A stretch of 61,727 bases of DNA, counting the filler, from Choristocarpus tenellus KU-1152 (Eukaryota > Protista > Phaeophyceae): NCBI GenBank assembly GCA_964200185.2. It is 10 parts of 10 records of this genome, joined end to end, with 100 filler letters (N's around TTAATTAATTAA, not from the genome) between each part and the next. Parts side by side here need not be neighbours in the genome. Positions count along the whole stretch, not along the records: positions 33,109 to 37,657 come from CAXNAD020014050.1; 9 more parts are not named here. The stretch is one strand, 5' to 3'. Position numbers and translations under genes: made by a program. Every line of letters starts with the position of its first letter. The first letter of the stretch is position 1. Below are positions 7,716-61,727 of this stretch, piece by piece. The notes beneath the pieces are model-generated. The model saw only the letters and a program-made list of their open reading frames with translations, made no database searches and was not told the origin of the DNA.

Positions 7716-7840
7716 CCCGAGTGCAGGGGTTAGAAGGTCGAGGTACGAGGTGGTGTTGGACAAAGAAATTGATATTCTACATTTCAACATGCCTCCCAGT
7801 GGTGATCCATGAAACGCCAAAACAGACTCAAACACTTCCT

Positions 7841-9336
7841 ATGGATTCGGATATGGGAACCGGACAAGAGGGCGTGCAACTCCCAGTTAGTGTACCACAG
7901 AGTCTTGTAAATTATGACCCGCCTATCTTCGCAGGACTCCAGCCATCCTCTGATAGCACAGGATGGGGGAAGGGGAAGGGAGGGAAGGGGAAGGGAGGGA
8001 AGGGACAACACGAGGGTCAGGGAAAGACATCTCAGTTAGACGACATGGTAAACTCCATGTTGCCTCCACGGGAATGGACGGAGAAGACAGGAACGTGGAT
8101 GCAATACGTAAGCAAAGAACCCGCCACGCGCTTGGCCGTCATAATGCTTCAGGTGTGTTTGATCTCTTGGGTGATACATAAACTCATTTGTACGATGTAC
8201 GAGGAAAATTGCTTGCCACTATGGAGCGACACTTCTTCATTTGGAGTTATTCATAGCTTCATTGTGAGCCTTGATATCGCCTGGGTATTCCCTGTGAAGG
8301 AATTAACACATTATTGGACAGACCATTGAGTATTCCCCCAAATACGTTGCTACTGTGTATATATACATAGCAAGTATCCATATGAGAGAAGTATAGCTTA
8401 CAATTGATTGCCTCTCATATTTTCAATTTTGTCCGCATAACATGGAAATGTCCCCGTGAATTGGAGAGTTTGACGAACTTTAGTCGTTGCTGCATGCTCT
8501 AAATATCAACTCCTGGGGAGATAGGAGCAATTGGACAAAAAACTTGTGGAAAGACAGGCGTTGGAGAACGGAATATGCCCTGTGAGGGAGGACCTCTACT
8601 CTCAGGCTTTCGGTGGGTACCCCTCCTTCCTTTCCTATCAGCGCTTTTTTGTGCCATTGCGCTGAGCCTGATACATTCTCCCCCAAGTGATCAATGCTTT
8701 CGCTGACACCTACCACGTAGAATTATACTACTATATACTCTGGAGTATATTCGTACATGATTCCTGATCCAATGTGCTGTGCTATGTGTCAACTACACAG
8801 CAATCGGCAATTCAGTCAACTATGAATAAGTCACCAGTCCTAACGTTGTTAGAATATGGTGACGTCGTTACTGCTTGGGAGGCAGGTATTCAACACTCAA
8901 GAGTAATCCACTCTCTATCCAACAAAATATTAATGAGAGATTAAGTAATCCTCAATCATGAGAGGCAGGCGCCACACCACTTCTTACCACTTTGGACGAG
9001 GATCCTCCATGACACGGAATAAAGCTCTGGAATGCAAGTTGCAATCTTCCCTCAAGCTTGGAATCGAACTTTTGTTTGGAGATTGTAGAACATGGCACAA
9101 ACACTGATTGCCAGCCATGCCTCACTCAGAAAAACTGTATCTTTGCCCTCGTTTTAGATGAGCTCATCCGTCACGTGACACTGGATGGACCGGAAAGGGG
9201 CCTGCTCTGCTTGCGCGTGAGGGATGAGATCCATATGACTATCGATGCCTACAAGACAGTCTATGATAGCAGTGTAACCTTTGGCATTAAGAAGCAATTG
9301 CAGGCAGAGCATGGCATGAGCGACAAGGAGGAACAG
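7841..9336 (+). CDS. DNALI1: Axonemal inner-arm dynein light intermediate chain p28, 3'-partial; exons 7841-8152, 8525-8612, 9158-9336
   Basis: SLVNYDPP...NSMLPPREW...WMQYVSKEPATR...LQ|EQLDKKLVERQALENGICPVREDLYSQAF|DELIRHVTLDGPERGLLCLRVRDEI...AYKTVYDSSVTFG, the diagnostic p28 sequence. No later exons were found before the contig end. Confidence 0.95.
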
Positions 9337-10543
9337 GTAAAATCTGAGATCTTCACACGGCATGTACACAAGAACAGTCTGAACCAACAAACCAACTCTG
9401 GTTGCAAAATCAACACAAAGAAAATGTATGATCGGTTTGATTCTACTTGAGAACATCTGGTAGATTTTCTGTAATAGCCATTGTGCTACAGTGCAGAATA
9501 TTTAACAATTTTTTATGTTGTTTAGTTAACGGAGTCACGATCAACCTTTGGCAGATAAATCGCCAGATGTCTTTCAGTCTCTTTCTTGCCTAATGTGATG
9601 AGATAAGTCGAAGGCCATTGACCAATCCAGGGCCTCCAACGCCAACCCTGGTGCTCAATAGTCATACATTAGCTCCCCTATGTGACAGACAGCCTGTGGC
9701 ACAGTCCTAGATATTTATCATGACTTGTTTCATCAACACAGTGGCCTACAGCTACCTTACCAATGATCGTATGTTGATGATGACAGATCCACTGCATGCA
9801 CCAGAACCTTGAGGCCTATGCCGTAATGGTCCTGAAGATGAAATCAGAGGAGGGTGTGGTTTCCCTTGCGTGGGGTAGTGGATAGACTGAACTTACCAAG
9901 CACTTGAGGCGATTGATCAATAACAGTATTGATGGGGTTAACCTGACAAGTTCCTGTTGTTCCCCTTCTGCAAGAGTTTGAAATTCCTCTTGCATGCTGA
10001 CCACTGCGTTTGGCACTACTCTGTTTTTAGACAAACATACTCTCACGTCCTCCACAATAGGTAGGGTATCATGTCTATTTCCTTGAGTTTTTTTTAGAGA
10101 GCAAAACACTTTTTCCCCACACATGCGGATGTTTGCGTCCAACGTGTAGTCACTAGACCGTTCAGCCTGAAGAAGCATTCATTCCACACACTCTGAGCTT
10201 GGGCAGGCAGTTACTGTGTCTGCTAATGGATCTTTATATATTAGAATCTAAGAAAATGCAGTTTGAAGTCTTGGTTTTCCTTATCAATATGACTTTGTTC
10301 AGAGCACATTAAATTATATATATTTTTTGCTTCACTGCACAGATTCACTCACACTTATATTTATATTATTCATTATTTATTTGGGTGCAACCTTCTACGA
10401 CTTGAGATGTGCTCACCTTGTGCTTCATGTGTGTGTGTGTGTTTTGAACGCTTCTCTCGACCTTAGTGTAAAATATCCAACAACCTGATTACTCTTACAA
10501 ACCTTTGCTATTCCAATACTCAAAATACAACATAAATGAAGAG

Positions 10544-20223: not shown

Positions 20224-20366
20224 CCTATACAGTCGTTAAGTATACCTCAATTGCACCAACCCTATACAGTCGTTAAGGATACCTCAATTACACCAACCCT
20301 ATACAGTCGTTAAGGATACCTCAATTGCACCAACCCTATACAGTCGTTAATGACACCTCAATTGCA
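20224..20366. repeat. 37-bp tandem repeat x~4 at contig start
   Basis: Unit CCTATACAGTCGTTAAGGATACCTCAATTGCACCAAC, no spacers. Confidence 0.95.
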
Positions 20367-21749
20367 ATTTGCATTCGAACTGCAAGGGCCTTTGCTGAGC
20401 TTCTGTCCATGGAGTGTGCGGCCGTCCACACTTTATTCCCTGTGAACTCGTACAATAGCTCCTCGTTTTTAAACCTGATGCAGAGGCCTAGAGTGAGGAC
20501 TTGTGAATGCCTAAGGATCATTACCACCAAAAAGAGCCCTTGTGAAGTTGGTGACAGGTCAAGGTCGTTCCTTGCACTACTTTACCGGCCTACGATGGAG
20601 ACTATCACACAACCACCTTAGCTCAGCATCAAGCATCTGAGTCCAGAGTACTCCAGCCAGGTCTGCCTACTTTAGTAATGTTGGAGGAGCTTGAGGATAA
20701 AAAACCACCAGACGATACTCTGCATGTGTTTCCTGGTGTTAGCTGAGGGCAAGCTGTGCATTTTTCTGCATTTTTCTGTGTGAGTCATGGATACTGGACT
20801 CCAATCTTCTATGCTAGACCTATTTACTTGGAGAAGGGCAGTGATCACAGAGAGAGGCGAGTGACTATATCTGAGGCCGGATTCAAACTTGAATAGGGTT
20901 AACCTCAGCTAATGATATTAGCAACATCATGAGAAGATTTAGACCCTATGTTTATCGATAGGATTTCTAGTTTTGATGATGTAAAAAAAATATTGTAACT
21001 ATCATACTTGAGCAAACTAATATATGATTTCACGAATAGCATCAACCAGGGGGGGAGGGTGACAATAAGTGGTACTGTACAAGATTAAATTGCATGTTCC
21101 ATTCTTATTTGAGCCATCCTTTGCTAGAGGGGAGTCCCGTTGAGAATCATGTGCTTCAGGCACACTAAAGGATTATTTCACAATTGCATGGACGAACTTC
21201 TGTATCCTCCACCACAGCTATAGTCTCCTAAAGGGAGTTAGTTGTATTTCAGGCAAGGGTGGGATATCAGACTAAAGATTTATGAAGCCTTAGATGTTCA
21301 AGAGGACCTAAATTCGATCCCCCTCTAAGACAGGATGGTTCTTTTGCAACATTGACCTTGCAATCTCGGAAGGTGTTTGGGCCTCTAGGAGCTATTATGC
21401 TCCCTCTTAGACTTGGGCTTCAGGCATGCACACATTCAAAGACACATTCACTACTGTTGGAGTACACATACATGTACCATGTTGTCTATTGTCGTGTTTC
21501 ATTTGTATCTAAGTGAAATCATTTGAAATTATGGATTATGGGACATACTACGCTTTGGGGCAAACACATCATGTATCAATACAGATACTACCAAGCATTT
21601 CATTTTCGTACTCACACATGTACCAACACATAATCCTCATGCTCACAGGACAGCAGGGATGTATGCCAACCTGATACTCATCATCCGAAATAATTTGTCA
21701 GCAGTTCATTGTGCCAAAGATCGGTGCTCTCACAGAATAGAACGCCCAC

Positions 21750-24700
21750 CTGTGATCTTCCTGAACATGGTCTATCAGTCCCAACTCCACTAGACGTTGT
21801 CCAATAGCCACAGCCTCTTCCGGGCTCCCTGCAATGTCCACATTACACATCCACACGACTGCCTCAGCCCCCAGAAAGGATTTTTCAAAGGTGCGGGAAA
21901 GCATAACATGATCCTGTGGTGTTTGTTGTAACAGATTCCACATAGTTACACCAGATGAAGGGTTAGGGTTAGGGTTATGTAGGAGGTAGGAAAGGAAGTA
22001 TGCCCGTGACACTTGGGCAACATTGAAGGCCTCCCCCTTCAGTAGTTGTTGATGGGCATATTCTAGGAGCCGTTGAGTCAAGACTGGCGCTTGTTGGCCA
22101 AAATGAAAAATAACGGGCCTCTTGTGATCAGGAGATGTTTACCAAGATTTCCACATGTATCTGGGACTTGCCATTTGCCGTAAGATATAGGCTTATTGGA
22201 TGGAATGTGGAATGAAATTTGAGACTGTGAAAGATGCACTGATGGGATGTTATGAAGTTCCTGGAAGAATTCCCTGCTTTCAGAATCATTCTATACAGGA
22301 TATTCTCTGAAAGGTTACAAAAGCAACTTGAGCAAGAACCTAGCATGCAATATACTACCAAATTGCCGATAAGCACTGCATAGAGCGATACATTTGAGTA
22401 GCCCAGCTCATTCACATTCATGGAACAAAGGATGCAATCATCCAGAGTGCTGACGAACTGGCTCAGCATATCAATGATGACAAAGCCTGTTGACTATTGG
22501 TTGAAGATGTGAGAGAGGGCGGGGGTTGTCTGCTTGTACTGCAGATCTAATATTTGCTGTGGCAAGGAGGATGATCCTAAGAAGTGATGCTTCAAGTTTA
22601 TCTTCATTGTGTGATACTAACCCTCACCTTGACATCTATCTGAGCCTGCATTTGCCCGCATAGAATCTCTGCTGCTTCCATTGTGAGGTCCATAGCACTG
22701 TTGTACTCACAGTCCACGGTGGCTTCGTTGCCACTGAAACGTTGGAATTTATATTCCGTTGCCAAGCTCTCGCTTGCCTGGGTAAGGTTGCAGCAATGGT
22801 GTATTGTGTCACAGAGATGAAGTATAGGTCCAACCTGTGCCCACCTTATCTTTTTGTGTAATAGTGTTGAAAAGTAGTATTTTGTGTTGTTAGTAAAAAA
22901 TAGGCTATATATGAAATTGATAAAGAATGATCTTATGTCCAACCCCTTGCTATCTGTAGCCCGAAAGACCCAAAATATCTGGGGGGGCGGGGGGGCGGTC
23001 TACACNNNNNNNNNNAGCCAGCTCTTATGTGCGCCGGGAGGCGCCAGAGATGGGGGGGGGGGGGGGGGGCGGTCTACACCAGGGTGTCCATTTGGACCAA
23101 AAACGTGAAAACTCCATTTACATTATCCATCCGACATATGCCACCAAATCAGCCAAACATAGCGACATGAAAATATTGACCCCAAATGGACAGCCGCCAC
23201 ACACACCCCAGATACTTTGAGCCAAGTGCAGAGTATCAACCTCATACCTTCTATACATGTAGACAAGACACAAACTGGGCAATGTTGGAGACCATGTATT
23301 ATTCCTCACCCAATCCTGAACTCCCTCAAGAGAGTGCACTGAAAGCATGGACAGGTTAGAGCAATAGGCAATCATCCTTTTTTGGTTCACCAAACTACCT
23401 ACCATCACGATATTCTACTTGACCACATCGGCAGAAACAGAAACTAGCTTTATTGAACCCTGAGTGATTTCAAGGGGGATAAAATTGGTTATGACTCCAC
23501 ATTCAATGGTAACATTTTTGCTTATTTTAGTGTGTTTGTGTTTGCCTATGTGCGTGATCTAGGATCAGTATGACACTTGTTTGTCTGCGCGCGAAGGTGT
23601 GGTGAGGTTTGAAGTACAATTTCTGTGCAATTTCTGTGCAATTTCAAAAATGATGTGAGAATAGAGTAAGGGACTAGTATGATTCTCACCGTGGATTGTG
23701 AGCTTGTGCTCTGGCGCCTGGCTTTGCTACGCCGGTATAACTTTTTCGTGGCTTGACCCTTTGCTGGTTTGTCCAGGGGGACATCAAGGTACTTCAGAAG
23801 ATGCAGCAGCTTGCGATCCTGAGCATTGGAACATTTTTATTTTATTGAGGTTTAGTGCTGAGAAAAAGTACAAATCAAAAAATAGCTTGAATGAAGAAAT
23901 TGCCCTCCTCCTTGTGCTTGCAAAGATCTTAGTCTATGTTTTCTATACTACACACAACTCTGTGTCACAGTTTGTGTTTTGTGTTGTGTCCACAGCTGTT
24001 CAGTGCATGGACTTGAGTGATGCAAAATGACAACATGGATATATGCTCCCCCATGAAGACGAGAAATTACCCCAGATGGTGTATCATAGACATTCTACTT
24101 AGGACAAAAGGGATACAAAGGTGTGTGTATCAATATCAATCAACCAACCTCAGGAGGCATAGTCTCAGTTAGGTGTGCAATGTCAACCATCCCTGCATTA
24201 TTTGGAGGCACAATGTTTACAATGAGCCTTGAAATCATGACAGAGAGCACGAAGTATGGTGTGCTTTGCTCCAGATGTGTCGCCTGTAAAACAAAATTTG
24301 ACACATTACAGAAAATCACCAAGGGTAGTTAGTGCACTAGGATATGGATTGGCGTTGCTGAGCACACAAGGTTGGCAATGTTGGGGTTTTGCGACTAGCC
24401 AATCCACCAGGTGCGCCACCTGAACAAACAAACAAAAAACAATCTTCAAAATACTTTTTTCATGTCGAAATGGTTGAAAAAACCGCCACCTTAACACAAA
24501 TGTGCAAAATAGATGCATTGCAACAATCCCCCACGGCAGTGCTTGAGGAGATGGATTGGTGTTGCCGAACAAAGCAAGGTTTGCAATGGTGGGATTTATA
24601 AAACATGGAGACAAATGTGAACTGCTGTGCGGACAAACCATTCTGATCACTGTCTTAGAACAGAAGATATGTACAAGAGGTCTCTGTAACGAACTGAAGT

Positions 24701-27592: not shown

Positions 27593-27696
27593 TACTTATA
27601 GAAGTGGATACTTATAGAAGTGGATACTTGTAGAAGTGGATACTTGTAGAAGTGGATACTTGTAGAAGTGGATACTTATAGAAGTGGATACTTATG
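27593..27696. repeat. 16-bp minisatellite x~6.5
   Basis: Unit TACTTRTAGAAGTGGA. Confidence 0.95.
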
Positions 27697-28208: not shown

Positions 28209-30717
28209 ATTCAGCACATTCACAATAGCAGCCTTGTTGGGTGGTCAGGTTCGTTTAACCTTCCACCTTTTGGATGTGGTGATGTGATCTGTAAGGGCTG
28301 GGAATGCAACCAACTGATCTCCTTGGTACAAGCGAGGGCCAATCAGGTGCGGAGGAGGAATCAAGACTTGCTTTGATCACAACCAATTCACAGCAGTGTA
28401 AATAATAGTATGAACCGGTGGTTGTTTTTCTCTGTCGTGTAGTGGTTGACCTCATTTTGATTCATATTTTCAAGCTTTTACTCTCTATTCTTGATCATAC
28501 CTCTAATGTTCATTATGTAGCGTGGCAAATCAGACTTCCTTTGCATCAGAAAATATGCTTACTGAATCGGGGGTGCTTAGTAATCTTGTATGAGATATCT
28601 CATACTTGCTATTGTCTTCTGTCACTCCTTACGCCTTTTGTTGAGGATGACCTTTGGTCAAGCGATTACCAGTATTTGATGCAGGTCTAGTTAGGTTTTG
28701 CAGGGTGTTCCAATGGTGCAAGATGGTCCGTACAGGGATGTGTGGTATATATTTTTTAAGATTTATGTCATCCTAATTCTTGCCAACCAAGGGTCTTTTT
28801 GTTGCAGAAAAAAATGTCAACCGGTAAGTCCCGCCACCCCTGTTTCAAACAGCGATGAGGAGTCTTGTTTGTGTTGACTCTACTTCTCTTGAGAAGTACT
28901 AAATTCCTAATGATCATGTTAGCTTTCTCTACCCTGGTTTTTGCCTCAAACATTAGTACCCAGTTTTAATTCTGTTATTTAAATTTCAGCATATTGTGGA
29001 TCATCTGGCGTAGCCTCACAAGCACCTGGAACCCCCTCGTATATTTTTGTCCGCATGTATTGTTCAGGAGAACTTGAGTGCCAAGAAGCTCTTGGAAAAT
29101 ATTCCCACACAAGCCCTCCCATTTCATGGGGCCCCCTTGCCTGTTACTTCAAGCGCAAGCCTCTACCAGGGTCTGGTATGGCCCTCTGAATATGCTACGC
29201 ACATATCTCCGATGACATGCAATCAACACAAGTTGCCAATGATTACAAAAGCAGTTACCAATCAATCTCCTATGGTACTGGGCTGTGATAAACCACCAGT
29301 TAAAGGATCATTAGTGGCTGTCCCACATGTCCTCGGAAATAACAGCCAGTTAATGTCCCCTCTAACTGCTGCTGGCAACCTGCCAGGCTGTTCACCCAGT
29401 TGGGACAAAGTGTCAAAACTCCCTGCAGCACTGGGTCCTCATCGCCTCCAATTCTTCCCCCCCTGCGTTGATACTTCAACAGAACCACTTGGGCCCCTGG
29501 AAACAGCGGGAATGGCCTTGGCACCTGCCAAGTCCGCAGATAAAACTCTTCTGGAAACTCCTTTGTATGACATGGCCAGTTTGCCCCTATTTCCCTCGTT
29601 GCCTTTGGATCAACTGGATGGGAACCCTAGATTGAGGAGAGTGGCGAAGCCAGGGACGTCAGTTGCATGTTCAAGTGTACTGAACTTACCCGTCAATGAT
29701 CAGCCTAGCTTCTACAGCCCTGTACCTTTTGTGCAAGTGGGATCCACACCTATGAGGAATTCGCTAGGTAATGGGGGAATCACTGACAGCACATATCTAG
29801 CTGAGCTTCTCTCTGAAGAAGCAAGGTTAAGATATGGGGCGGGACGGACCAACTTTGGGCATGCATCAGACCAGTCAAATCAATTACAATTCCGTAGATT
29901 GGTGAATGGGGCACCACAGGAAAGATCCTCATCAGTTCATCATGAAAGTATTTCTGAGAGTGGCGGAACTGGGATTGGGGAGGGCCAGGCCAGAAGAACA
30001 ACTGGCTGCGCAGATATGATGGTTGGTGTACCAACCACGTACAAGCTACCTGTAGGAGGCCAAGAACCTATTTTACGGGCAACAAGGTTGTACAATATGG
30101 ATGGGGCCAGTGCTTCTCAGGGTGTTGAGGATCATTCATCACTAAACATTCCTCCAGTGAGGTACGTGAGTGCAGTGGTTGGCACGCAAGGTGCCCCTGT
30201 GTTATCTATACCTGAGCAACAAGTGTCACCCGGTTTTCATCAGCAAGGAGGTGCCAGGATTTTGCAAGCATCATATTTGCAAGAGAGGAAATTGGGGGGG
30301 GGAACAGACAATCATGGCAACTGGAACTCCGTCATGGCTGATCCAACTCTTCAGAAGCTGAGTCGGCAGATTGATCCAACCACACTTCCTTGCCCAGAGT
30401 CCCTTGTACAAGAATCAGGACTTCATCATTGGGGTTCAAATAAAAATGAGATGTGGCTACAATCACATTCAGGAAACATTGCAGAAGGGTCAGGAAAAGC
30501 ACTGAATGTAATGCCGTTGAAGGAACCATCGACTGGACCAAAGACACAGAGACTGTCGGTAGAAGAGCATAAGGGCTTTTTATGTATGAAGGGTGATTCA
30601 AAGCAAGAAATTACGACAGAGGAGTTGACATTGCCAGTACCTCCTGCAGAAGGAGCACAGGAGGGTGGCATGACCAAAGAAGATGCCCTTCATCTTCGTT
30701 CCCTCCTCTGGGAATGA
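28209..30717 (+). CDS. 3' end of an unknown gene: exon 28209-28325 and large terminal exon 29068-30717 (mostly disordered, Pro/Ser/Gly-rich)
   Basis: A 556-codon open frame preceded by a CAG acceptor in phase 0. The upstream 117-nt exon has CAG/GT boundaries. No domain recognised. Confidence 0.65.
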
Positions 30718-33008: not shown

Positions 33009-33134
33009 NNNNNNNNNNNNNNNNNNNNNNNNNNNNNNNNNNNNNNNNNNNNTTAATTAATTAANNNNNNNNNNNNNNNNNNNNNNNNNNNNNNNNNNNN
33101 NNNNNNNNGTGGGTGGGGGTGCGGGAAAAGGAAA

Positions 33135-33179: not shown

Positions 33180-36100
33180 GCTAGAGTTCGGTCATTCATG
33201 AATGGAGATGATTTGGAGGTGTGCGACCGAAGGTGGTGCAAGAACGGCAACCTTATTGTGGCAAACGTTGAACACTCGACGGATCCAACACTTATCCGCA
33301 AGGCCCATAGTCTTCTACGCGACGTATTTGGGTGCCGCACTAGATAGGTTCGGACTCAGGAAGAAAAAAAACGTGTCTACTGCGTGCCAAGAGCGTGACT
33401 CTGCCGTTCATTCTTGACAAATATGTAACGAAGTGCATTCTATGCCAGATTCACATCGATCTTGTAGCCGAAGTCCGTCGTCACCGTCTTCGCAACGAAA
33501 ACGGTCGCCTCATCGGGTCCCATTGCCTTTCCCTGAGGATTGACGGCCTCAGGAAAACATCACTGCGTCTCAAGTGGGACGAGGGTCTGCACCAAGGCTT
33601 CCGGCAGGCAGGAAGGGCCTAGCACGCGTTCTTGAAGGAGAGACGTGGATACCTGCAATCATTTGCGTACATGGGACAGCCCAACCATGTGGCATTCAAG
33701 TGTTTGCCATGCGATAAGGTTACATCACGTACGTAGGGGTTATTCCGGTGTTGGTTCAATATCTTGAGGTGTACCACAGCACGTTTGATTTTCATGTGGG
33801 GAAGAGCCAAAGTATCTTAGAGGGTACGAGTTTTGCCCTGTTTGTCCATTTGGGGCTTGGCTTCCCTAGGGGTTTTTATGACATTTTCCTACTTCAAAAT
33901 GTTTCGGAGTAGGTAAAAGTTATACGTTCTGAAAAGGTTTGTCCGGAGCAAGGATATTGACACTTCCTAACAAACATGATAGCCAAAATTACATCGAAAT
34001 CGCAGCGCTGGATTTTGACCCCCAAATGGACGCGGCTCTACCCTCTAAGATACTTTGGCTCGGAAGAAAGACATTACGATGTACCAACACTCACACACAA
34101 AGTCTTGGGGTCTCGCGATTTCCGTTTGTGGTGTGGGTCACCGCGTGCACTGTGTTAGCAACGTGTAAACATGGACAAGGACACATCGCTACCACAACTG
34201 CACGCCCGACACCTATCCATAGCGAACGAAGACAAACAATAAGTTGGAAAGAAATGGAAAAAAGCCAGCACACCCTTATTACCTTCCTCTTGCCGTCCTT
34301 GTAGGCTCGGCCGAAGGAGGTCTCCATCTTCTCTTTCATATCGCCCTTTGACGCCGCGTTGGACACGAACACCTCCACCCTCCTGCTCCATTCAAGGGCT
34401 GCCTCCGTCACGTTGTGCCTCTCTGACTGAAGGAGATGACGGTGTCCCCAGGATTCGTGTACCTATCATAGGAGGGCAGGTCCAAAACATTTCCTGAGGA
34501 GTACATTGTATTGCGCACGGATTCATCATATGGCAATGTATGAGTAACGTATTGATTCGGGGCAACACAGTCATGGTGCGGTTTGACACGTAACATACTG
34601 ATTCTGGGAAACACACTCATAGTACGGTTTGACGCCCCTTAACCGTCACCCAGCTTGTTGCGTTACTGTTTAACGATGATCTACACCTATACAAAAAAAG
34701 TCGTTGCTCCCATGAAGAAGGGCGTGTGCGACGTAATTAACGAACCTGTCAACGAGGAAGTGGAGGGCCCTCATGGGGATGTCCGTCGCAGCACCTTGGT
34801 ACTCGACGTCACACATGGTTTGGAGCACCAGAGGAGATGGATCACTCCCGTGGCCAAAAATGTCGTCGACGGTGACTCACTTGTTGCACGTGAACTCTGT
34901 ACCATCGTTGTGCGCGAGAAGAATCATGTCCTGGTGGCATTTGAGATGGTTATCAGTGCCTGCGAGAGGGCGCCCCCCCCCCCTTGTCTTGCACATTATA
35001 AGCAGGGGACGATCTTCCACAATCAAGCCCACCTTCGACACCATAAGAGCCCCTGACTGAAGAGAAGGCAGGAGCGAGCGCGTGGGTCTGGCATGCGTCA
35101 AACTTGACAGTAACAGCACACAAGTATGGTATCGTTAAGCTTCATGAAATTGCATACCACTAACATAATAATAGTACAACGAGGGTGGAACGCAAGTCAA
35201 ATAACAAATGCACAAAATAATAGGAAATTCTTTTATAAAAGGAAAGACAAGTAACATCAGCAAGCGATTTGTGGACAAATCAAACAAAGAACTACGAAGG
35301 ACACGGAGGGGAAGAGCAAAAGACACAAAAGGAAATACAAGGTACGAAGAAGATGAAACAACATGGGGAAAGCGAAAAGAAAAGACACAAGACAGAATCC
35401 GCATCTCTTGAACGGCCGCCACCGTTTCCGATCGACACTCGGGCGGACTGATAACGGCCATGGCGGATTGCAATAGTCTCCCGCAATACACCCCGTATTT
35501 CAGCGCTGGCGAACTCTGCAACTCACCGTGTAGGTGGTGAGGTTGCACAGCCCACGGGTGGGGCACAAATAGCGCGATAGTGCCCTGAGGATGTATCTTC
35601 ACCTGCAAGCACTTCATCACCTGGCGCAAGTGGGTGTTGGTCACCTCTTCGTCGTTGAGGGGTCTTGACTCAGCGGTGATGGACACTATGGCAAGCTTTG
35701 GCGCGTTGTAGAAGGCGAACTCTTTCAGGCCGTCTAAGGGTAGTGTTGGGTCGAGAGGGCGAAGGTCGTGTAGTGCAGCATTCTCAGCCCTGGTTGGACA
35801 TCATGACACATGACACAGTACACAGACAGCACGACGAAAAGTACAGCATCGTAACAACGGTGCAGGCAATTTTATCAATAAGTGAGGATCTGATAATATT
35901 TTTCCGGCATCCCCAAAATGTTAAGCCGTACCCTCCACAACGCCAGACCCATCAGATACATCTTTTGGAAGGAGGGGAGACGACAAACAGGTAAGTTCCA
36001 TGGTCCATGGAAACCTCCAAAAAAACGCCATACCGAACACACAAAGGACGAGCAATACACATGATGTACAACCAGCCAAGACCCACGTGCAAACCAACGC

Positions 36101-39100
36101 GAAACTGAACACGCAGAGACGAACTGTATGTCCTTATAATGTGCAACCACGCTGAGACCCACATGCACTTCTCCATGTCCGCCGTTTCGCTGCGTGAGGG
36201 GGGACACAAAAGGCTTTGCCTGCTGGGTGACCCGCCCGCACTCCTTGCGTTACATTTACCCTTACCCTTGACCCTGCCCCAACCCACTGCTGCGTTCCCC
36301 ATCGGTCCAGTCCCTTCACTGCCCTCCTGTGCCACGGGGCAATTGATACACAATCGATCCTTGTCCCTCTCGTCCCACAATATCCACGTTGGCACATTCG
36401 CCCATGTGCGTGATGGAGCACTTTGGGCAGGAACACCTGCCGCGCATGGCATCGAACGAGAGCGTCAAACAGACAGAAGAGCATTTTTCCAAATCATTAA
36501 TTGGGCGCAACAACGCAACGTGGGGATCCACGGCTACAAAGGACCACGAAATTGGCTGCACAAAACAATACAAACTACAGGTGCGAAACAATAGTCGGTT
36601 GCGACATGCACTAACACACTCGGGCTGTGGCAAACAAAGAGACCTGGGGGTAGCGACCGCAGCGCCACACAGAGAGGGACCCCGCCACATCCACTGGTGT
36701 GGTGGCGTGCATTGCTGAAGCAAGACAACTTAGTTATCCGTTCGGGCGATCGGATGAAAACCAATCTTACACCATTAATTACCCGCCATCCGCGTGTGCA
36801 CAACTACAACTACATTACTCACCGAGCCGTAGGTGGAGGATTACATTCAGTACAGCAAACGCCCGCATTCCACTCTCCATGGCCGTTTTGTTCTTCTTCC
36901 GCACCAGGAACGCTGTCGACAGAACCCCCTTCGCCCGTATCCTCCCTGCCTGGCAGTCTGTCCCCTCCCTCGTCTTCATCCTCTCCTTCGTGTTCGTCCC
37001 CTCGGTATTGTTCGCACCCTCCCTTGTCTTCGTCCTCTCCTTTATGTTCGTCCCCTCCCTTGTCCTCGTCCCCTCCTTTGTGTTCGCACCCTCCCTCATC
37101 GTCTTTCTCCCGTCCATCTGATGCCAATCCGTTGTTGCTCTCGACGTCAGCGCCGCCGCCATTACCGCCCCGCCCGCTGTGGATCTCATGGAGGTTAACC
37201 TGGTTGAGGACATCCTGGTATTTCCCATCCCAGGTGGTGAGGTAAGCGCGTAGCGTCGAGTCCTTCTCGAGAATCTGGTGGTGGACACGGCGGAGAACGT
37301 TGTTGAGGAGAGGAGGGGACAATGGTGACGTCAAAAATGGGAGAGTGTAAAGGAAGTACGATAGCATGTCAATCGAACAGAGCAAACGATACGATTGACG
37401 TGGTAAATACGTCTAATGGAGGCGGCTTGCGGGGCGAAATAGTTTGAAAGAAGTCATTATCAAGGATGCCAGCCTGTCTGTAGTTTACGACAGTGACACG
37501 TGTTGGAGGCGGGAACGAGGTACAGATTGACCAAGATCTTGCCCGGAGTTGAAGGCAACGGTTGGTTATTCCCGCTATTAGCAATGAAGCCGAGATCTGA
37601 CAAAACTGCATCGTTTGTTGTAGGGAAGGCAAGTCTCTCGCTCATGATGATGACGAANNNNNNNNNNNNNNNNNNNNNNNNNNNNNNNNNNNNNNNNNNN
37701 NTTAATTAATTAANNNNNNNNNNNNNNNNNNNNNNNNNNNNNNNNNNNNNNNNNNNNCACTCACGGCTCTGACCCGTTGCAGAGGTTTCATTCCGACCAC
37801 CGTCGAGATGTTTGCCCTCAGCTGCCGGACGGGCCCCGCTTGTTGGTCGCCAGATGAAACCTTCTGCAGAAGTTGGGCCACCTCCCTTTTCCTCTCCTCG
37901 TAGTGGGGCTTGACCCAGAGGTCGTGCATATTGCACTTCTCATATGCGAGCCTGTCCATTTCCCTGGTAGCCCGTGCCACATTCACATAACGTCCAAAAT
38001 TCAGAGCAGTTTTGCAACAATCAATAAGTGCGGTGCCGAAAAAGACGCTGACAGTATATTTTAAAATTGAGGGGCGCATGGCGACGTATGGGTGCACACG
38101 AGATACGGAAAAGGCAAAAAAAGATAACCACTGCAACTGCACCATTTACCAACCTTTGGAGCTGTGGTGTCCACTTCTCCTTGGACACAATCTGCCTGGT
38201 GCGCGAGACAACCATCTCAGACATGTGCGCGTCTGATTCGATGTCCTTGTAGTCCCTCGCCGTAGGAACCTTCCCGTTGAACGACTTGTACCTGAAAAAA
38301 GAGAATGGCCATGAAGGACGTCAACAAGAACAATGTGCAGGTAATGATGAGGAAAGGGTCGCCACTGCAGAAAATATTCACGGATCGATTGTCATAGTTC
38401 AGAAAAGACAAGAGCGCACATACACAGGAAACACACACTGTTCGTAGAATTTCCACAATACTACAAAGGGTTCTTCGTTCGACACAACAATGGCTGACTA
38501 CATTCTTCATCGTAGGAGATACGTATTTAACGTTCCTGTGCAATGTGCTGCGACCTGCACACATTGCGCTTACTGCTGTCTACACGATAAAACACAGTGA
38601 TGGTTTGACCTGCCTAGCAAGCAGATGGATGCATAGCCCCTGCTTGAGAAAAGTGAAGCCAGCAAACTCCTCGCAACTCAGATAGTTCAGTGTGACTGCG
38701 TTGCGGTCGATCTGTGATGATGAGGTCTCACACACTTCCTTCAGTACCTCGAAGGACTCTGGTCGAAGGGACTTTACGCCTTGCTGCCAGTTTCGTGGAG
38801 TTGTTTTTGCCGGGGGAGGAACGTTCACCTTCGCGATGGGCAGAAAACGGAAAATATTATGCACCCAGCCAGTGAGGATGAGGCATCGTTATACCATGCC
38901 AACGAGGTATGTATGAGTGGGGGGGGGGGGTTCAGGCAACACCGTCGATAAAATAAACAAGGACGCTTTTTATTGTTCGTCTGTGGTTAACCACACATAC
39001 ATACTACATGGTCACTCGAAAATCAATAAGTTGGTTGACAGGGTTCCTAAACGCGGGATAACTATCTCGACTTAGGTTGAATAGGAGGACAAAGAGAGAT

Positions 39101-40038
39101 TTCACAACAGCTCTAACCCAACTAGAGGAGGAGTAGAGCGCCACCATCCCACCAATGTTGACAACTCCATCAGCTTTTTGTACATTTTGTGGATCTCTAC
39201 TAGTGACTCTTCTTTTTTCTTCGTCTGTTGCTTGATAGCTTCTTCGAGCTCGTGCTGAAAAAATATCTTATCGTACAGCGTGCGCTCAACCGCACTCTCG
39301 GTCGCGTCGTTCAATGCTATAAGCGTGGTCCCACAGTGTAGTGGGCGAATGGGACAAGGGGTAGGTGGGAAGCGGTCGCGGGACACACGCGGCATGCAGT
39401 ACTGAGCCATATGTTGCTGTGGACAGAAAGACCACGAGGGATAAAAAATATCAACAACGAAAAGATCCTCAATGGGCTAACTGACAATGAACCAAACAAA
39501 GGAAACTCGGCAACAACTTCGTACATCAGAAGAGTCATCAGGCGATCATGGAACAACGAAAAAACTCAACTTACTTTGTTGCTTAGTTGATCAGAACGAT
39601 CAGGCGATTATGGAACAACGACAACACTCCATCACCCACCGTTGGCAATTAGCCTTCCTTCTGCTTGGTTGAACTCCATGTAGACCCGCATCACGAAAGC
39701 GTGTTCGGGATCAAACTCTCTATTCATCACCGTTACTCTATGGTTTCCGTCCAGTGTACGTCCTTGAATAAGCAGTCTCGCTGGACTACGACAGACGGAG
39801 CAAACTGCTCCAGCCAGCCTTTCTCGTGGATAAACTTGCTGACGCGCGCAAGGCCACGCTCGCTCAGTGGATGCACCATCTCCGTGCGTGTGATGTTGCC
39901 GAGTTTCATCCGGTACGTGCCGAGGTAGTGGTGTTCTAGGAGTGAGGACATGCCCTTTAGATTGCTGTCCCACGTTCTCGATCCGTGGGCAGCGCCATCG
40001 GCGGTCGGGTGGGTTGTTGTTGAGCGAATGCTGGACAT
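33180..40038 (-). pseudogene. Decayed multi-exon gene: ParB-like domain + helical/HTH-like region + acidic linker + PHD-like finger + beta-class N6A/N4C DNA MTase-like fold (spans linker 37658-37757)
   Basis: ParB motifs V(H)PLSERGLARVSKFIHEKGW..FAPSV and LDGNHRV, then LIAN|ALNDATESAVERTLYDK. Cys/His cluster CSCPKCSITHMGEC...RLCINC. MTase-like LRQVMKCLQVKIHPQGTIALFV, HQDMILLAHN and IPMRALHFLVDR|YTNPGDTVISF...EAALEWSRR. Contains in-frame stops and frameshifts; the 3' limit is approximate. Confidence 0.65.
33804..34061. mobile_element. MITE family A, in an intron of the ParB/MTase-like pseudogene
   Basis: Perfect TIR GAGCCAAAGTATCTTAGAGGGTA; TSD GGAA. Confidence 0.95.
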
Positions 40039-40289
40039 GGCGAAGGTTGGGAGGGTGTGACGGGGATCGATAAATAACAGGTGCACGTGGTATGTACGGA
40101 AGGGAATGAATTGAAATGAGGACTGAGGGACGGCAGGTGCTGCTTTATTTCATCTGGTTGGTCGGTCCTCAAAACTCAGATTTGTCTTTCCGTTGACAAT
40201 TGTGTTATAAAAAATATGAATATCGAACAGCATACGATTTCATATTGGAAAGAGACAGAGAGTAACAGATTTTTGTGACCTTTTCGTTT

Positions 40290-41340
40290 CGTACGTTTCA
40301 AACGTATTGTATCAATGAAGGATGTGGTTTGTATTTGTATTTGTTGATGTAAAGATTAGAATATTATTATTATTTCGTAAAACCCCTAACGCACGTGTCT
40401 TGGGTCTTCAAGGGTTTAGAAGATCAGATCGGATCTTTAAAACTCTATATCCTCTTTTTTGTCGTCTCTAGTATTATTAAGAATCCTAATGTCGCCAAAA
40501 AGCGGTTTTAGTATTTAAATAAATTGTGGGTACCAGTTGGAAGTGACCTTTTAGTTTCTGAAAATTGGAAACGTGTGAGATCCATAAGGTGCGTTTCTTG
40601 TATTTTCAAAAATTGTAAGAACGATTATTACTGGATTTACTATTTCTAAAAATCCTAATGCACGTGTTTTGGGTGTTCAAGGGTTTAGCAGATCCGGATC
40701 CGCTAAACCCAAAGAACCGCGTTTTGTCGCCTCTAGTATTTTCAAGAATGCAAATGTCCAACAATTTAAGATTTTATACTTAAAAAAATTAGAGGGTGCC
40801 AGTTTTTTTTTTACCTTTTGGTTTCTGAACATTGGAAACGTACAAGATCAATGAAGTATGTGCTTCACATTTAAAAAAAAATTAAGTACGGGTATAATCG
40901 GATTTACAACTTCCAAAAACCGTACTGCACGGATTTTCAGGATCATGGATCTCAGGGTTAGCCCACGGATTGCCCGGAGTTCAAAGAAAGTTGGTTTCGG
41001 AACATTGGAAACGTACAATATCAATTAAGTATGTGATTTCTATTTTAAAAAAATTGTAAGTACGGGTATAATCGGATTTACAAGTTCCAAAAACCGTAAT
41101 ACACGGATTTTCAGGATCATGGATCTCAGGGTGGTCCCACAGATAGCCTGGAGCTTAAACAAAGTTGGTTACGGAACATTGGAAAGATACAATATCAATT
41201 AAGTATGTGATTTGTACTTTAAAAAATTTGTAAGTACGGATATAATCGGATTTACAACTTCCGAAAACCGTAATGCACGGATTTTCAGGATCATGGATCT
41301 CAAGGTGGTCCCGCAGATAGCCCGGAGCTCAAACAAAGTT
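40290..41340. repeat. AT-rich tandem array: three ~173-bp units (starting 40827, 41000, 41174) preceded by two diverged ~270-bp units
   Basis: GAACATTGGAAA(C)G.TACAA.ATCAAT.AAGTATGTG and TATAATCGGATTTACAA.TTCC.AAAACCGTA.T.CACGGATTTTCAGGATCATGGATCTCA recur at 173/174-bp spacing. Related motifs occur at about 40560 and 40290. Confidence 0.9.
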
Positions 41341-41414: not shown

Positions 41415-43914
41415 ATGACAGTTGCTTCCACAGCAAGGGGGTGGCTTTTGTCGCCTGCGTCTCCCCCTGTGTTGCCCCCTCACCAGCCCACGAACAATGA
41501 AGCGCTGGAGCTTTCTACCAATGACGCTTCAGCGACCGGCGCCAAGCTTCGCCGAGGATGGGCTGAACCCATCCTGGTCAACGAATAGGGTGACTGCTGC
41601 AAGCGCTTAGCCTGTGTGAAGAAGTTCGCGGCAGATAGCGAGTCCTTCCTTGCACGCACGTTGGCCAAAGAGCAGGACATCATCCGGGCGTGTGAGAACC
41701 GCCGCGATCGTAAGCACTTCGTTGGTGACCGTGTACCTGTGACTAAGTTGGGTCCTGGAGGTGGATCTATGCTCGCGGCCGGCATTCCCGTCTATGCGCA
41801 GTTTCTCAAGGCATCGTTCGGAATATCCAATCATGTCATCGACGCTTGCAAAGGCACACCTAACGCAAGAGCATCCACCGGCGTGGAGAGGTGGGTTTGA
41901 TATATGTACACAGTGTTATTTTTCCCCGGTATATTTTCCCCCCTGCTTGATGATTGAACAGTAGTCCTATTTCAGAACAATGTAATCCGACCGTACTCAC
42001 CACATTCACTTTGCAGTTACCACGCCTAAATGTCTGATATTCAAAGTTAAAGATCCCTCCAGCATGAAGTTATGTGTTACCTATGTGTGTATATACACGT
42101 GCGATATGTTTTTTTATGCTTCAACAATATCATCTCATCCGACCGTCCCCGCGCTGCTGCAGCAGTTACCACGTGTAAATATTTTCGGAATTAGAGATCC
42201 GCTGCTGACATACGATCCCTCTAGGATTCCATCCTCCGTCCCTTGTATCCACCTCCAACACATCTCCCATCCATTTATATACATACGTGCGCTACTACAA
42301 CAGGAACAGCACGAACAAAGATAGGGACATGGCTCCGAAGATAGACTACTGGGCTGATACATATGGGTAGTTCACGCCTCACAAGTCCACAATTGTGATC
42401 TACGGTGCGAACAAAGAGGTAGGTTTTGCTCTTGGTTTTGGAGAGGTTGGCCGCACCCTGTGTTGGGAGTTAGTTGCAAACCGTGTGACCCAGCAGTACG
42501 TAGAAGAGGTGGATCGAAGTAGCATTTCGAGTGGTGGATGTTTATTACTTCAACCGGTATGATGTTATGGTTAAAAGAACATGTGAAGATTCGTACCAAG
42601 GGCTATTTTTTTCGTTTGCTATTTCGAGACTACAATGTTGATGATGATACTCTTCGTCGCATTTACGACGGAAGACACACTAACTGTTATCCGTGTACAC
42701 CTACTCTGCGGCCCCAGGCCCGGTCTGACATTGGTAGCAAAAGTGTGTACTTCGTATGTCTAAAGCGCTTCACGATGAAGATGATGATGATGATGATGAT
42801 GATAGATTCGCCTCCTTTGCCGCTTCTGCAAACGGTGGCAAGGCCCGAACAGAATGACGCTCCTGGCAGATTTACGAAGATCATTGTATTTGCTCTTTCG
42901 TAACGCACGATGTAAGCTTGCTTGACCCTGTCTTCCGCGTTCTCAGTCAAGTTATTGGTCAGCCTGCCTTCAAGAGATTTTGCAGGGGTGTTCTTCGAGT
43001 GTTCCTTCTCAATAACTCCTCGCTTGCCCACACAACCAACATTTTAAACTAGGAGCTATACAAGGATTTTTGCAAAGAGGTAATACGGGTGTATCCTGAC
43101 GACCCTTCCAAGCAGGTAAGCAGGGCGCACTTCCTCCGATTGCTCAGAGAGGACAGGCCCAACATCAGGGTGAGGGTAGGAGGCGAGTTTATGAAATGTG
43201 ACATATGTGTCACGTTAAAAGAGAAGCGGCATGGTTCGCCTGGTGTAAAACCCACGAACGACTCCACCGTCCTTGACTCCATTGATAAGGGGCTATCAGA
43301 CCATCGAGAGGTAGGTGTTCAGCGTTAATTTTGCAACAAGCGTACAGTGGCAACATGTCGCCGTCATTGCCCTCCATTGGGAAGAACATCTGTTGCCTTT
43401 TGCGAATGAAGGCTCCCACGCAGGTGCTTATGGCAGCAGCAGCAGCCTCACTCACCGCAAAAATGTTGTTATTACCTGCCCAAACATCTTGTATGATAGA
43501 CTGCTTCCTGGTCGTCTACAACGGGATGTAGGAGGGACAGGTCATGTAGCGGCCTTCCGGCCCCGTACGTACGTACTTCCTACCATCCCGATAATACTGT
43601 GTTTGTAATGAACGCAGCAATAAAAAACATATCCAAAGACAATCATTTATTGTTACCTGCACTCCATTTTTGTTACTAACCTGGGACGTGTTAACAAGTG
43701 GCTGGTTTATTTGATTTACAGACGTGATGTTGCTCTCCCCCATTCGCCAGATTATCCAAGCGGATTGGCTGGTCATCGCCAACAGCACCAGCAGCGCCAT
43801 GCGGGCCAAAGCCGACGGCAAACCTCTCGGCTTTGTGTTCATGTCCGTAGACGTCGCGAACCAGACAGCACAGGCCCTCCCAGCACTTTACCCACCTACC
43901 CACGGCGGTGACAG
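41415..43914 (+). pseudogene. Sola1-type DDD transposase relic with introns (exon-like 41415-41890, 43053-43310, 43751-43914); 3'-truncated by contig end
   Basis: N-terminal CCKRLAC and GIPV(Y)AQFLKASFGIS. Middle ELYKDFC...VSRAHFLRLLREDRPNIRVRVGGEFMKCDICVTL...DHRE. First catalytic Asp region FMSVDVANQTAQALP, compared with DG[AM]DQ...LP. In-frame TAG at 41586-41588. Confidence 0.7.
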
Positions 43915-44091
43915 GTAATCACACGCACGCATAGTTCATCTGACAACAAGTTTGCAGCCGCACGCGGAACAGAATAGACGACCATGTTTTATTCTACGGA
44001 TGATTGCAAAGTCCCAAGAAATAACCGCTAAAACAGACGCACATAATTCCACTACCTATTCCGTTCATCATGATGACGACACACCGTAGAA

Positions 44092-44150: not shown

Positions 44151-44500
44151 NNNNNNNNNNNNNNNNNNNNNNNNNNNNNNNNNNNNNNNNNNNNTTAATT
44201 AATTAANNNNNNNNNNNNNNNNNNNNNNNNNNNNNNNNNNNNNNNNNNNNAAACACTACAATGCCCTCCAAAACATCTATTCAAAACATAGCTCTCCTGT
44301 AATAAAAAATAAATCAACATGGCTGACACCACCCCCCCCCCCCCCAACTTTTCCTGCACTGCTGACCATATCCCACTATCATGTCTACATTTCTTGTTCA
44401 CACCCATTTTTTGAGTACTTCCCTCCTCCTCATCCCCCCCCTCCCGCCTACCTACACACTACAAAATTGGAAAGTACCGGTCATCCTCAGAGTGGTTTAC

Positions 44501-47500: not shown

Positions 47501-48259
47501 TATGATACTGTGAGGAGAAACGGCTGCTGTACCAAGCGCACAGTGCGCATCAGGTATACAACGTATCAGACTGCGTGGGATGTGGGTCAAACATCGACTC
47601 CATCTGGAGGTGAACCTGGTTCTACAAAAGTTCAACCTTGTGAAAGTTGGCAAGAGGCAGAGCACTCACACAAGGTTAATCCTTGTCCCTCATAGAAACT
47701 GTCATTTAAGGAGATTCAGGCAATGAGTCAGCGTAGACTCTCTTCTCCTACAGCCTCGTATGCTGGCTCCACAGATGTCACGGACGTGCTTGCATTCAGC
47801 GGATATGATACTCCCACAACGGTTACAACGACCCGAGATTCCATCCACTTCCTTCCCCCCTCCTACCTCCTCCTTGAAGGGCATGGAGTTGGGAATACCA
47901 GGGTCCTTGACCTTTCGGTTTGCCTTGGGGTTCCTTCGAGACTCCTTTTTCTGCTTCCGATGGTGTTCAGCTACCTGAAACAGGTAGTTGGCGGAACCAT
48001 TCAAAGCGGTTTGAACGAACAAATGAAGCTTGAACCTATTAAAGGCACTAGTTCTAGGCAAGATGCAGGGGGAGAAACTTCCGTGGATGCATATGAGTCG
48101 ATGGGAGAGAGGTGCATATTATAAAAGCCAGTTGTGCCACGTACAAGACAAGCGCAGGAAATCGACAGCCTCACACACACCACGTTTTCATACCCTCTTC
48201 TTTATCTTGTACTTCTGTTGTAGGCTTGTCCTCTTGGACTTCCCCTTCTTCTTCACCAT
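44501..48259 (-). CDS. GNL3: Nucleostemin/GNL3 (Nug1/Grn1) circularly permuted GTPase, 3'-partial; exons 48259-48194, 47974-47867, 47037-46957, 45838-45731, 44925-44848, 44629-44501
   Basis: [22 protein letters not shown]|VAEHHRK...[14 protein letters not shown]|VLAEIE...[11 protein letters not shown]|[21 protein letters not shown]...VLVLNK. All joins are phase-0 GT-AG. Confidence 0.95.
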
Positions 48260-51211: not shown

Positions 51212-53380
51212 GAGGGGGCGTACCTATATAAGAGAGGGTAGGGGCAAGCGAAAAACCCCTCTTATACCCGATCCTCTCTTATTGTATATAAGAGTGATTT
51301 TCTCTTAAACCGAGGGATTATGATAAGAGAAACCTATGTTATATTGAGCAACAGTGCTCGTAGGCACTTTATACTTGTCCCCGATCGATGACAGAACGAC
51401 GCCCTAGCTGTATGTGCTTCTCCTGTGCCTTCAAGAGTAGTTACATGTAGATATGTATTGAACATTACCCTCGGTGAGTCCATTTCAATGAAGCTGTGGT
51501 GGTGCAGCAAGCACCACATCTACACCACCCCTTGACAGTATACCAGCTTCGTATGTATATGCAGTAGTGTAACTTTGGTAAATTACACTCATTGCAATGT
51601 ATTCATCCATATGTATGGTACACCTTCCCAAGAAAAGCATCTGCAAGCTGTTGGATGGCTGGATAAACGACTCACAGTTCAAATCAAATCAAAGTTTAAA
51701 GCCAATCTTCCTCTAATGCCCTGCCCTACGTATTCAATTGCACACTACAAGCATAATATACAGTACGGTATCAAAAACGCCACCATATATCAAATACACC
51801 TGCACCGCCAAGCACCCCATCGTACGCACTGAGTAAAATAACTTATTCACTAATAAAAAAATTACGACCGCCAATAAAATCGTGAATGCCTCTAGTTTGA
51901 TTGCCCTTGCCTCAATTGGGCTGAGCCAAGCCAGCTTTGCTTTCCAGAGATAGTATGAAACATCGTTCATGCTCCACTCTTCTGTGGTGGTTTCTAAGCT
52001 TGCAAACTCGTCAGCTACTTGAGAGTATACGGCGGTGGAGGAATCGAGAACACTGAAGAGGCTACTCCTTTCTCTTCACAGCCCCCAATGAGCTGCCCCC
52101 TCTTATAAACCCATCGTCATCCTCGTCACCCAAGCTCTCATTGTCTGACTGCTACAAGGATTCCTCGAGCAGCTGGTCTTTCATGTTCTCTAGTACTGCA
52201 TTGGCCACTTCATCCTTGTCTTCCACACCAATCCACGTTCTCTCTGTGTCGATGGAAGCCTGAGACGGTTTTCGGTCGGGCTTGAGGTCCAGAGCGTCAA
52301 GAGCATTGGAGATATCCTCACTAATATATAGGGACACCTTGTGGGACGTACCTCTACTCGCAAAATGACCACCCGTGATATTACTACTGTACACAGTACA
52401 GACATTACAGTACGACAGAAATGTGCGCAAAAACAAAACAAAACAAGCATGATCCTTATCTGCAGACAGTGCAGAAAGATAATTCAATCACAACCACAAT
52501 CACAATCAACCTGCTTTCAGACTTTCAATCCACGCGCTGATGCATCTCGACGTATTTGACACACCCCTCGTAGACTTGGCATCAGGCATCAGCGTCTGCG
52601 CTTTCTCCATACTGGTTGTTGTCTCCTTCAACTTGTAGAGGGTGCTGTGACCAATTCCAAACCTTTGAGCAACTACAGTTTCCGTCATGGTCTTCAGGAG
52701 GGTCGACGCTTCCACCTTCTCTGCAAAGCTTAAGCATTTTCGATTTTCGGCACCGCGAGGCTTGTAGGACGCAACTTTCTCTGTAGATTTATTTGGCAGC
52801 ACCTTCCCCTTGCCCTTGTTCTTGCTATCGTGGCGCTTTGACACCATGTTGTCACCAGGTGGAGGACCCAAAGCCCTGCGCTTGGTGGGGCTCACGCACA
52901 ATTTACACACGTGTTTCATTTCGCTGGCGCCAAAAAGAACCCACGACGCCGCAAATGCCATGAAGATAGCCACTACAAATGCAACACTTATGGCATGTAT
53001 AGTTTGACGGACCAGGAGTACTACACTGTATGTTGCAGCTGGATCCCGGTGCGCAGGGCATCGTTATATCTGTACAATTCAGTCGTCTAAACTTGATATG
53101 TGCAGTACTGAAAGGCAAAAGATTGGTATGCTGTGTTCTGGTCGTTTGAGGAGGTTTGTACCTTTGTTATATTTTGCTTAACTTTAGACATGAGTTTTTG
53201 GGAAACTCGTTGGTCAAGTGGTGAAAAAAAAATGAGAGTTTGCTCGTATAAGAGAGAATTGGCAGGAAAAAGTCAAAACCTCTCTTATATATAGCTTGAA
53301 AAGTGGTGACAAGAAAATTTTCCCTCTTTTATATCCCGTTTTCTCTTATATCGACCTCTCTTAAATAGATACACCCAGTC
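51212..53380 (-). mobile_element. Internally deleted pogo/Tigger (Tc1/mariner superfamily) element
   Basis: TA on both sides. Imperfect TIR GAGGGGGCGTACCTATATAAGAGAGG versus GACTGGGTGTATCTATTTAAGAGAGG (reverse complement), with subterminal CTCTTATA repeats. CENP-B/psq-type HTH RKCLSFAEKVE...VAQRFGIGHSTLYKLK. No DDE core visible. Confidence 0.8.
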
Positions 53381-61552: not shown

Positions 61553-61599
61553 GAGTACTGCAAAAACACATGCAGAGTCGGACAGATAGTTGACAGACA

Positions 61600-61727
61600 T
61601 GTAACTAACCTGTAACTAACATGTAACTAACCTGTAACTAACATGTAACTAACCTGTAACTAACCTGTAACTAACATGTAACTAACCTGTAACTAACCTG
61701 TAACTAACATGTAACTAACCTGTAACT
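61600..61727. repeat. 11-bp minisatellite running off the window end
   Basis: Unit TGTAACTAAC(C/A), about 11-12 copies. Confidence 0.95.

Follow-up and report, generated by a model that had tools for sequence, protein, structure and literature searches.

The locus considered here lies in a 61,727-nt stretch of DNA from the brown alga Choristocarpus tenellus KU-1152 (assembly GCA_964200185.2), which consists of ten parts joined end to end and is referred to below as the window. It raises the question of whether a gene with the fold of a DNA methyltransferase (MTase) but without its catalytic motifs still encodes an enzyme and, if not, what its product may do. The gene runs from 33441 to about 40040 on the minus strand and comprises, in order, a ParB-like exon, helical pieces, an acidic linker, a zinc-finger-like exon, the MTase-fold exons, and a further exon. 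The window copy is a pseudogene and makes no full protein. The locus is best explained as a defective copy of a multi-copy brown-algal gene that is likely an accessory of a large DNA transposon, and whose product, predicted to have a ParB-like domain and a dead beta-class MTase fold, likely binds DNA and regulates its own element without acting as an enzyme.

A Predicted Beta-Class Methyltransferase Fold

The first-pass annotation of this DNA described three spliced exons at 35789-35527, 35052-34746, and 34462-34283 (minus strand), and these hold: the borders are AG/GT, the phases are compatible, and the same splice joins occur in annotated relatives, with P0001 crossing the exon 2/3 and 3/4 joins and P0050 (Scytosiphon, 590 aa) crossing all of them. 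According to the codon map, exon 1 (35527..35789) contains the start of the MTase-fold domain and the position of motif IV, with 85% identity to P0002 and 64% to P0050. Exon 2 (34746..35052) contains the core strands, the family-conserved FTCN, and the motif X region, and exon 3 (34283..34462) the degenerate motif I and II positions. The closest annotated relatives of the exons are C. tenellus proteins (72-91% identity). All of the segments to which the beta-class likeness had been traced (KLAIVSIT, LRQVMKCLQVKIHPQGTIALFV, HQDMILLAHN, and IPMRALHFLVDRYTNPGDTVISFS) are present, and DPPY/SPPY and FxGxG are nowhere intact.

That likeness proved to be above chance. A profile of nine family rows compared by hhalign with 12 beta-class MTases gave Prob 95.9, E 6.4e-9, and a 161-column alignment scoring 65.1; 100 block shuffles reached at most 28.1, and the reversed alignment reached 13.3. 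The motifs follow the order IV...X-I-II of a permuted Rossmann fold. When the structure model of a 60%-identical relative was compared with known structures, bacterial beta-class enzymes topped the fold lists, followed by METTL3-METTL14 and MTA1-MTA9 chains. Together, these comparisons support the prediction of a beta-class amino-MTase fold for the domain. A home-made hidden Markov model (HMM) of the 12 beta-class MTases scores single sequences weakly (best 8.2 bits; window 5.9), so the MTase signal is visible only by profile-profile or structure comparison. Of the proposed checks, structure prediction supported the fold, and the Pfam N6_N4_Mtase search (PF01555) gave no match in the window exons and family proteins, even with E limits of 1 or 10. 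In scans of the exons and relatives against Pfam, PHROGs, and NCBIfam, no MTase, ParB, or SET family passed the cut-off, and sequence searches of the PDB returned nothing significant.

Loss of the Catalytic and Cofactor Motifs

The state of the motifs was compared across the family by an HMM search over 87 proteins, in which 15 rows span motif IV and 33 span motifs I and II; P0024 (2,309 aa, with unrelated repeats) was excluded from the counts, and one false regular-expression row, P0023, was rejected. Motif IV, [DNS]PP[YFW], is absent from all 15 rows and from the window, in which SITA (35683-35672, exon 1, codon map) occupies the site where SPPY or DPPY is expected. The variants in the family are SIGA, SIAT, DLTR, PLGL, and SPGK, the nearest being SPGK in P0025. 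FxGxG of motif I occurs in none of the 33 rows and GxG in one (P0025), the first glycine of GxG being replaced by glutamate in 31 rows, with G and D in the remaining two. The motif II acid is also missing from every one of these rows, with V, L, A, or M in its place in the ungapped register, and an invariant E stands three places earlier. The rows represent about five lineages with 21-38% identity, and 13 invariant positions are common to seven rows, the invariant residues including C215, D271, E285, E295, R265, and R292.

The segment FSQRGTT, earlier likened to the GsGTT of motif I, is a frameshift artefact, read out of frame after a 1-nt deletion near 34426, so that motif I is more changed than had been stated. 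In both runs surveyed (one study), contigs from the other copies are one base longer at this point, and in the correct frame past the deletion relatives read S[FLY]S[AT]ERHNV. The counts above support a motif loss older than this copy, as the first-pass annotation had suspected. An intact consensus, which it had considered the finding that would speak against a dead enzyme, is seen in none of the relatives' rows.

The acidic residue of motif II binds the ribose of S-adenosylmethionine (SAM), and it is on the known roles of motifs I and II that a judgment on SAM binding depends. The role of motif IV in methyl transfer is described in the available text of PMC4738411. Because motifs IV, I, and II are lost, methyl transfer by the family is very unlikely as judged from sequence, and SAM binding would be unlikely to almost the same degree. 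The proposal of a dead MTase serving in DNA or SAM binding is thus supported as to the dead state and unsupported as to SAM, both motif I and the acid of motif II being gone; DNA binding is what we infer. The gene can be classed with the ParB-MTase accessory genes, but the state of its motifs IV, I, and II sets it apart from the active beta-class MTases.

Remaining Exons and State of the Copy

Neither the exon 2 stop described below, the ParB-like N-terminus, nor the remainder of the gene from 33441 to about 40040 featured in the first-pass annotation, nor did the published ParB and MTase accessory gene. Downstream of the fold, an exon at 33441..33652 (minus strand) encodes a helical region, with 77% identity to residues 83-151 of P0001 and 60% to residues 335-391 of P0050; its acceptor and phase fit, it has one in-frame TGA, and it is the final gene piece located in the window. 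Upstream, the exon at 36163..36436 (minus strand) encodes a Cys/His-rich, zinc-finger-like stretch with matches to P0002, P0050, and P0045, and has a frameshift near 36375, where other copies have an inserted base; its relatives match the FYVE zinc finger below the cut-off (best E 0.0012). A helical stretch and acidic linker follow at 36823..37310 (minus strand; donor at 36822, acceptor not fixed), with 48% identity to residues 393-423 of P0066 (E 0.007) and a match to P0040 (E 1.7e-4). Middle exon pieces with approximate borders lie at 37786..39317 (minus strand), with collinear weak matches to P0066 (residues 162-221 at 39317-39123, E 0.055; 334-401 at 37959-37786, E 0.61).

Just downstream of these pieces, the gap at 37658-37757 falls inside the gene. 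The exon order across it is supported by collinearity with P0066 (Ectocarpus sp., 1,153 aa), which has six collinear minus-strand matches between 39951 and 34292 (E 3e-4 to 0.61) and one chance match elsewhere in the window (E 0.82); P0050 matches five exons at 43-67%. Such gaps, with paired 44-N runs around TTAATTAATTAA (e.g., 33009-33108 and 37658-37757) and often beside G or C runs, are scaffold joins and not biology.

The copy carries two stops and three frameshifts. The exon 2 stop is an in-frame TGA at 34879-34877; a sense codon occupies that site in P0010, an annotated copy. A 36-nt micro-intron excising this stop was rejected, as P0010 and P0050 carry residues across it. Compared with the majority of copies in the best-supported rows, this copy has 9 silent and 14 replacement codons, a count that is uninformative against a neutral expectation of 23-33% silent.

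The Predicted ParB-Like Domain and the Tail

The first exon, at 39635..40041 (minus strand), encodes a ParB/Srx-like domain with LDGNHR and has a frameshift near 39760. Read with X at the breaks, it aligns to residues 44-181 of P0066 (E 7.7e-11). A two-row ParB-like profile compared with six phage ParB proteins gave Prob 94 and a score of 48.8, the best of 60 shuffles being 29.1. The sole phage match of P0066 is a ParB-like protein (E 0.6), and the NCBIfam DGQHR domain matches it at E 0.1. An N-terminal ParB-like domain is therefore predicted in the same gene as the MTase fold.

A search of the window with 64 proteins did not locate the last domain of the relatives (about 405-540 in P0050). 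A model of this tail, with a predicted local distance difference test score (pLDDT) of 55.7, had no Foldseek match under E 0.001; among the matches listed, the highest query template-modeling scores belong to the SET domains of MLL4 and MLL1, both weak (E 4.8 and 5.5). By its sequence pattern, a degenerate SET domain is a possible identity for the tail.

Repeat Family and Element Context

The gene region is a multi-copy repeat family: many divergent contigs from the two runs cover 33200-37650 in 30 of 30 bins, introns included, and several partial annotated copies exist. Upstream of the first exon, a tandem array at 40367..41340 has 3.0 copies of a 174-nt unit at 40818-41340 (89% matches) and decayed units down to 40367. 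It sits between the ParB-MTase gene and broken frames on the plus strand at 42340..43915, which are head-to-head with the gene and contain KCDIC...H and VFMSVDVANQTAQALP. These may be motifs of a Sola/DUF7869-type transposase, a resemblance that no tool confirmed. The palindromes of the array at 40681-40710, 40915-40937, and 41089-41111, counted without a shuffle control, are candidate binding sites. A 103-aa coding-looking open frame (41589-41897, plus strand) with no family match lies beyond the array, ahead of the transposase-like frames.

A repeat of about 253 bp that resembles a miniature inverted-repeat transposable element, with terminal inverted repeats, is nested at 33809..34061 in the intron that separates exon 3 from the further exon. 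At least nine copies or parts are found in the window, with very deep coverage in both runs; others lie near 2487, 16390, 18690, 19175, 19790, 26990, 31965, and 44092.

The window is eukaryotic DNA with spliceosomal introns and flagellar genes. No relatives of the gene were found in metagenome contigs, viral contigs, or plasmids. A viral origin was rejected, as the gene is spliced and no viral relatives were found, the latter being a weak negative.

Possible Function and Alternative Explanations

The non-catalytic subunit in CcrM dimers and METTL14 hold DNA and dimerize, and by analogy the dead MTase domain may be a DNA-holding and dimerizing module. In intact elements, the ParB-like domain would bind the palindromes of the 174-nt array between the gene and the transposase-like gene, and the zinc-finger-like stretch would contact chromatin. 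As an outcome, the divergent promoter region of the element could be controlled or shielded, or assembly of a transposition complex could be helped. The chain as a whole, from array binding through the dead-fold module and zinc finger to control of the element, is proposed tentatively.

Several observations weigh against a non-catalytic, transposon-borne regulator. Motif IV still begins with S in the window, P0050, and P0002 and with D in P0045 and P0027, and P0025 of Discosporangium, the least degenerate member, has SPG at motif IV and GEG at motif I. Motif decay is accordingly graded, and by its sequence P0025 is the best candidate for residual SAM binding. The rows are interdependent, coming from about five lineages, and the searches (42 and 21 relatives) were seeded with degenerate members, so that a sister clade with intact motifs might have escaped them. 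The modeled structure belongs to a relative and not to the window's own protein. As for ParB, the reference set was seeded from the phage match of P0066 (E 0.6), which makes the test partly circular; the window's ParB-like piece alone scores 2.8 bits, and Pfam detects no ParB in the family proteins. The frames at 42340-43915 have no Pfam match and were likewise blank in the metagenome scan; Sola domains without Pfam matches in 2017 are reported in the available part of PMC5751038. Element ends were not found, as no terminal pair was seen in the window, and gaps (33009-33108 and 44151-44250) flank the region.

In the alternative that fares best, although an unlikely one, the protein would be the inactive subunit of a heterodimeric MTase, as METTL14 and MTA9 are, and would target and hold DNA for methylation by an active partner that comes from the element or the host. 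Beta-class enzymes act as dimers with divided labor, and in the fold lists bacterial enzymes are followed by the METTL3-METTL14 and MTA1-MTA9 chains. In the available texts, METTL14 is described as an inactive subunit (PMC4738411), and the methylase domain of the red-algal PAG2 protein is detectable by Pfam (bioRxiv 10.1101/2025.02.11.637652), which points to enzyme-like relatives in algal transposons. However, an intact MTase is absent from the 42 and 21 relatives, and none was seen in the window frames scanned.

Slightly less likely still is catalysis by a domain with non-standard motifs, in the form of methyl transfer or of another reaction that uses invariant residues such as the FTCN cysteine and two glutamates. 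The invariant residues and the S or D retained first in motif IV by some lineages are consistent with it, as are the clades with unusual strand-4 motifs noted in the accessible part of PMC4738411 and the 4mC or 6mA (N4-methylcytosine or N6-methyladenine) that PMC12477816 predicts from the Ectocarpus accessory protein. Against it, motif IV starts with P in the Ectocarpus P0034 lineage and its fourth place is never aromatic, in addition to the near-universal glutamate in GxG and the missing motif II acid.

A domesticated host gene family that is no part of a mobile element is improbable. It would fit the many introns, the terminal repeats and target duplication that were not found, and the unconfirmed transposase, but divergent contigs in the hundreds extend over introns as well as exons, many gene models are broken and partial, and the array and head-to-head layout are those of published elements, which in the texts available have spliced genes themselves. 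Loss of the motifs by decay of this copy alone, or in a domain drifting without function, would agree with its five breaks and with a codon count showing no clear departure from neutral, but is highly improbable and largely refuted by P0050 and P0066, unbroken Scytosiphon and Ectocarpus gene models that share the degenerate motifs and have conserved flanks.

Other Features of the Window

Ordinary host genes include those for a phosducin-like protein (6407-7552, minus strand), an axonemal dynein light chain (7694-9450, plus), CFAP97 (4192-4500, plus), a DEP-domain protein (21698-22138, minus), and a GNL3-like protein (47702-48118, minus). A 567-aa open frame at 29014-30717 (plus strand) has no Pfam match. 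At 52506-53063 (minus strand), a frame with a weak match to the CENP-B N-terminal helix-turn-helix (E 0.005) is likely a remnant of a pogo-type transposase. Short tandem arrays of 16-nt and 37-nt units lie at 27593-27688 and 20224-20366, respectively, and an 11-nt satellite array (61597-61727) ends the window.

Comparison with Known Systems

The MTase domain shares its permuted fold and motif order with CcrM, M.MboII, M.RsrI, M.PvuII, M1.HpyAVI, TTHA0409, and the rotifer N4CMT, but these enzymes are active, with [DNS]PP[YF] and FxGxG, and are only 9-17% identical to the model. Closer in state are the inactive MTase domains that the available text of PMC4738411 describes in METTL14/Kar4, the DIRS1 retrotransposon, and the second domain of fungal clade 4, which are also pseudo-MTases, one of them (DIRS1) transposon-borne. 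Unlike the window family, they are MT-A70, PCIF1-like, and DpnA-like domains, and that text describes none as ParB-fused in a DNA transposon.

In red algae, Plavaka, Mutator, and Zisupton transposons carry PAG2 (N6-adenine methylase and SET) and PAG3 (ParB-like), the latter adjoining tandem arrays of inverted repeats, according to the accessible part of bioRxiv 10.1101/2025.02.11.637652, which names VANDAL as the known self-binding case. The window gene resembles these as a likely transposon accessory with predicted methylase-type and ParB-like domains and an inverted-repeat array beside the ParB gene, with the reservation on palindromes given above. In contrast, ParB and MTase are fused here and separate genes there, PF01555 detects PAG2 and not the window family, and PAG2 has a SET domain where the tail of the relatives here is a candidate one.

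The nearest system is the 21.5-kb Sola1-1_Ec32, with terminal inverted repeats AACCG-CGGTT and a 4-bp target duplication, which carries a 1,104-aa gene with ParB-like and N4-cytosine/N6-adenine MTase domains opposite its transposase (PMC12477816, available text). Both are from brown algae, have the same two domains (as predicted for the window family), and are similar in length (1,104 vs. 1,153 aa in P0066), and the window gene may likewise lie opposite a transposase. The Ectocarpus siliculosus protein Esi_0352_0027 belongs to the family of the window gene, and, set side by side by description, the window family is quite probably the Sola1-1_Ec32 accessory family.

The ParB and MTase architecture is thus already in print, and the family-wide dead state is the addition. 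We found no report of the inactive state in literature mostly outside subscription journals; the 2025 supplements or Iyer et al. (2011) may show it. Algal transposon ParB-methyltransferase genes were put forward in 2025 as a class whose products bind and epigenetically modify their own element. PMC12477816 proposes this for the Sola1-1_Ec32 protein and predicts that it makes 4mC or 6mA, whereas the members examined here all lack motifs IV, I, and II. Should the brown-algal proteins be pseudo-enzymes, a different mechanism would be required for them, and no 6mA or 4mC would be expected on the elements; a methylase fold would then have stayed under constraint throughout an algal class following the loss of catalysis. 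It is possible, although doubtful, that in brown-algal giant transposons an old ParB-fused pseudo-MTase family acts as a sequence-targeted, non-catalytic chromatin or anti-silencing factor on its own array, like VANC of VANDAL but independent of it, and that the published Ectocarpus ParB-MTase belongs to it and methylates nothing.
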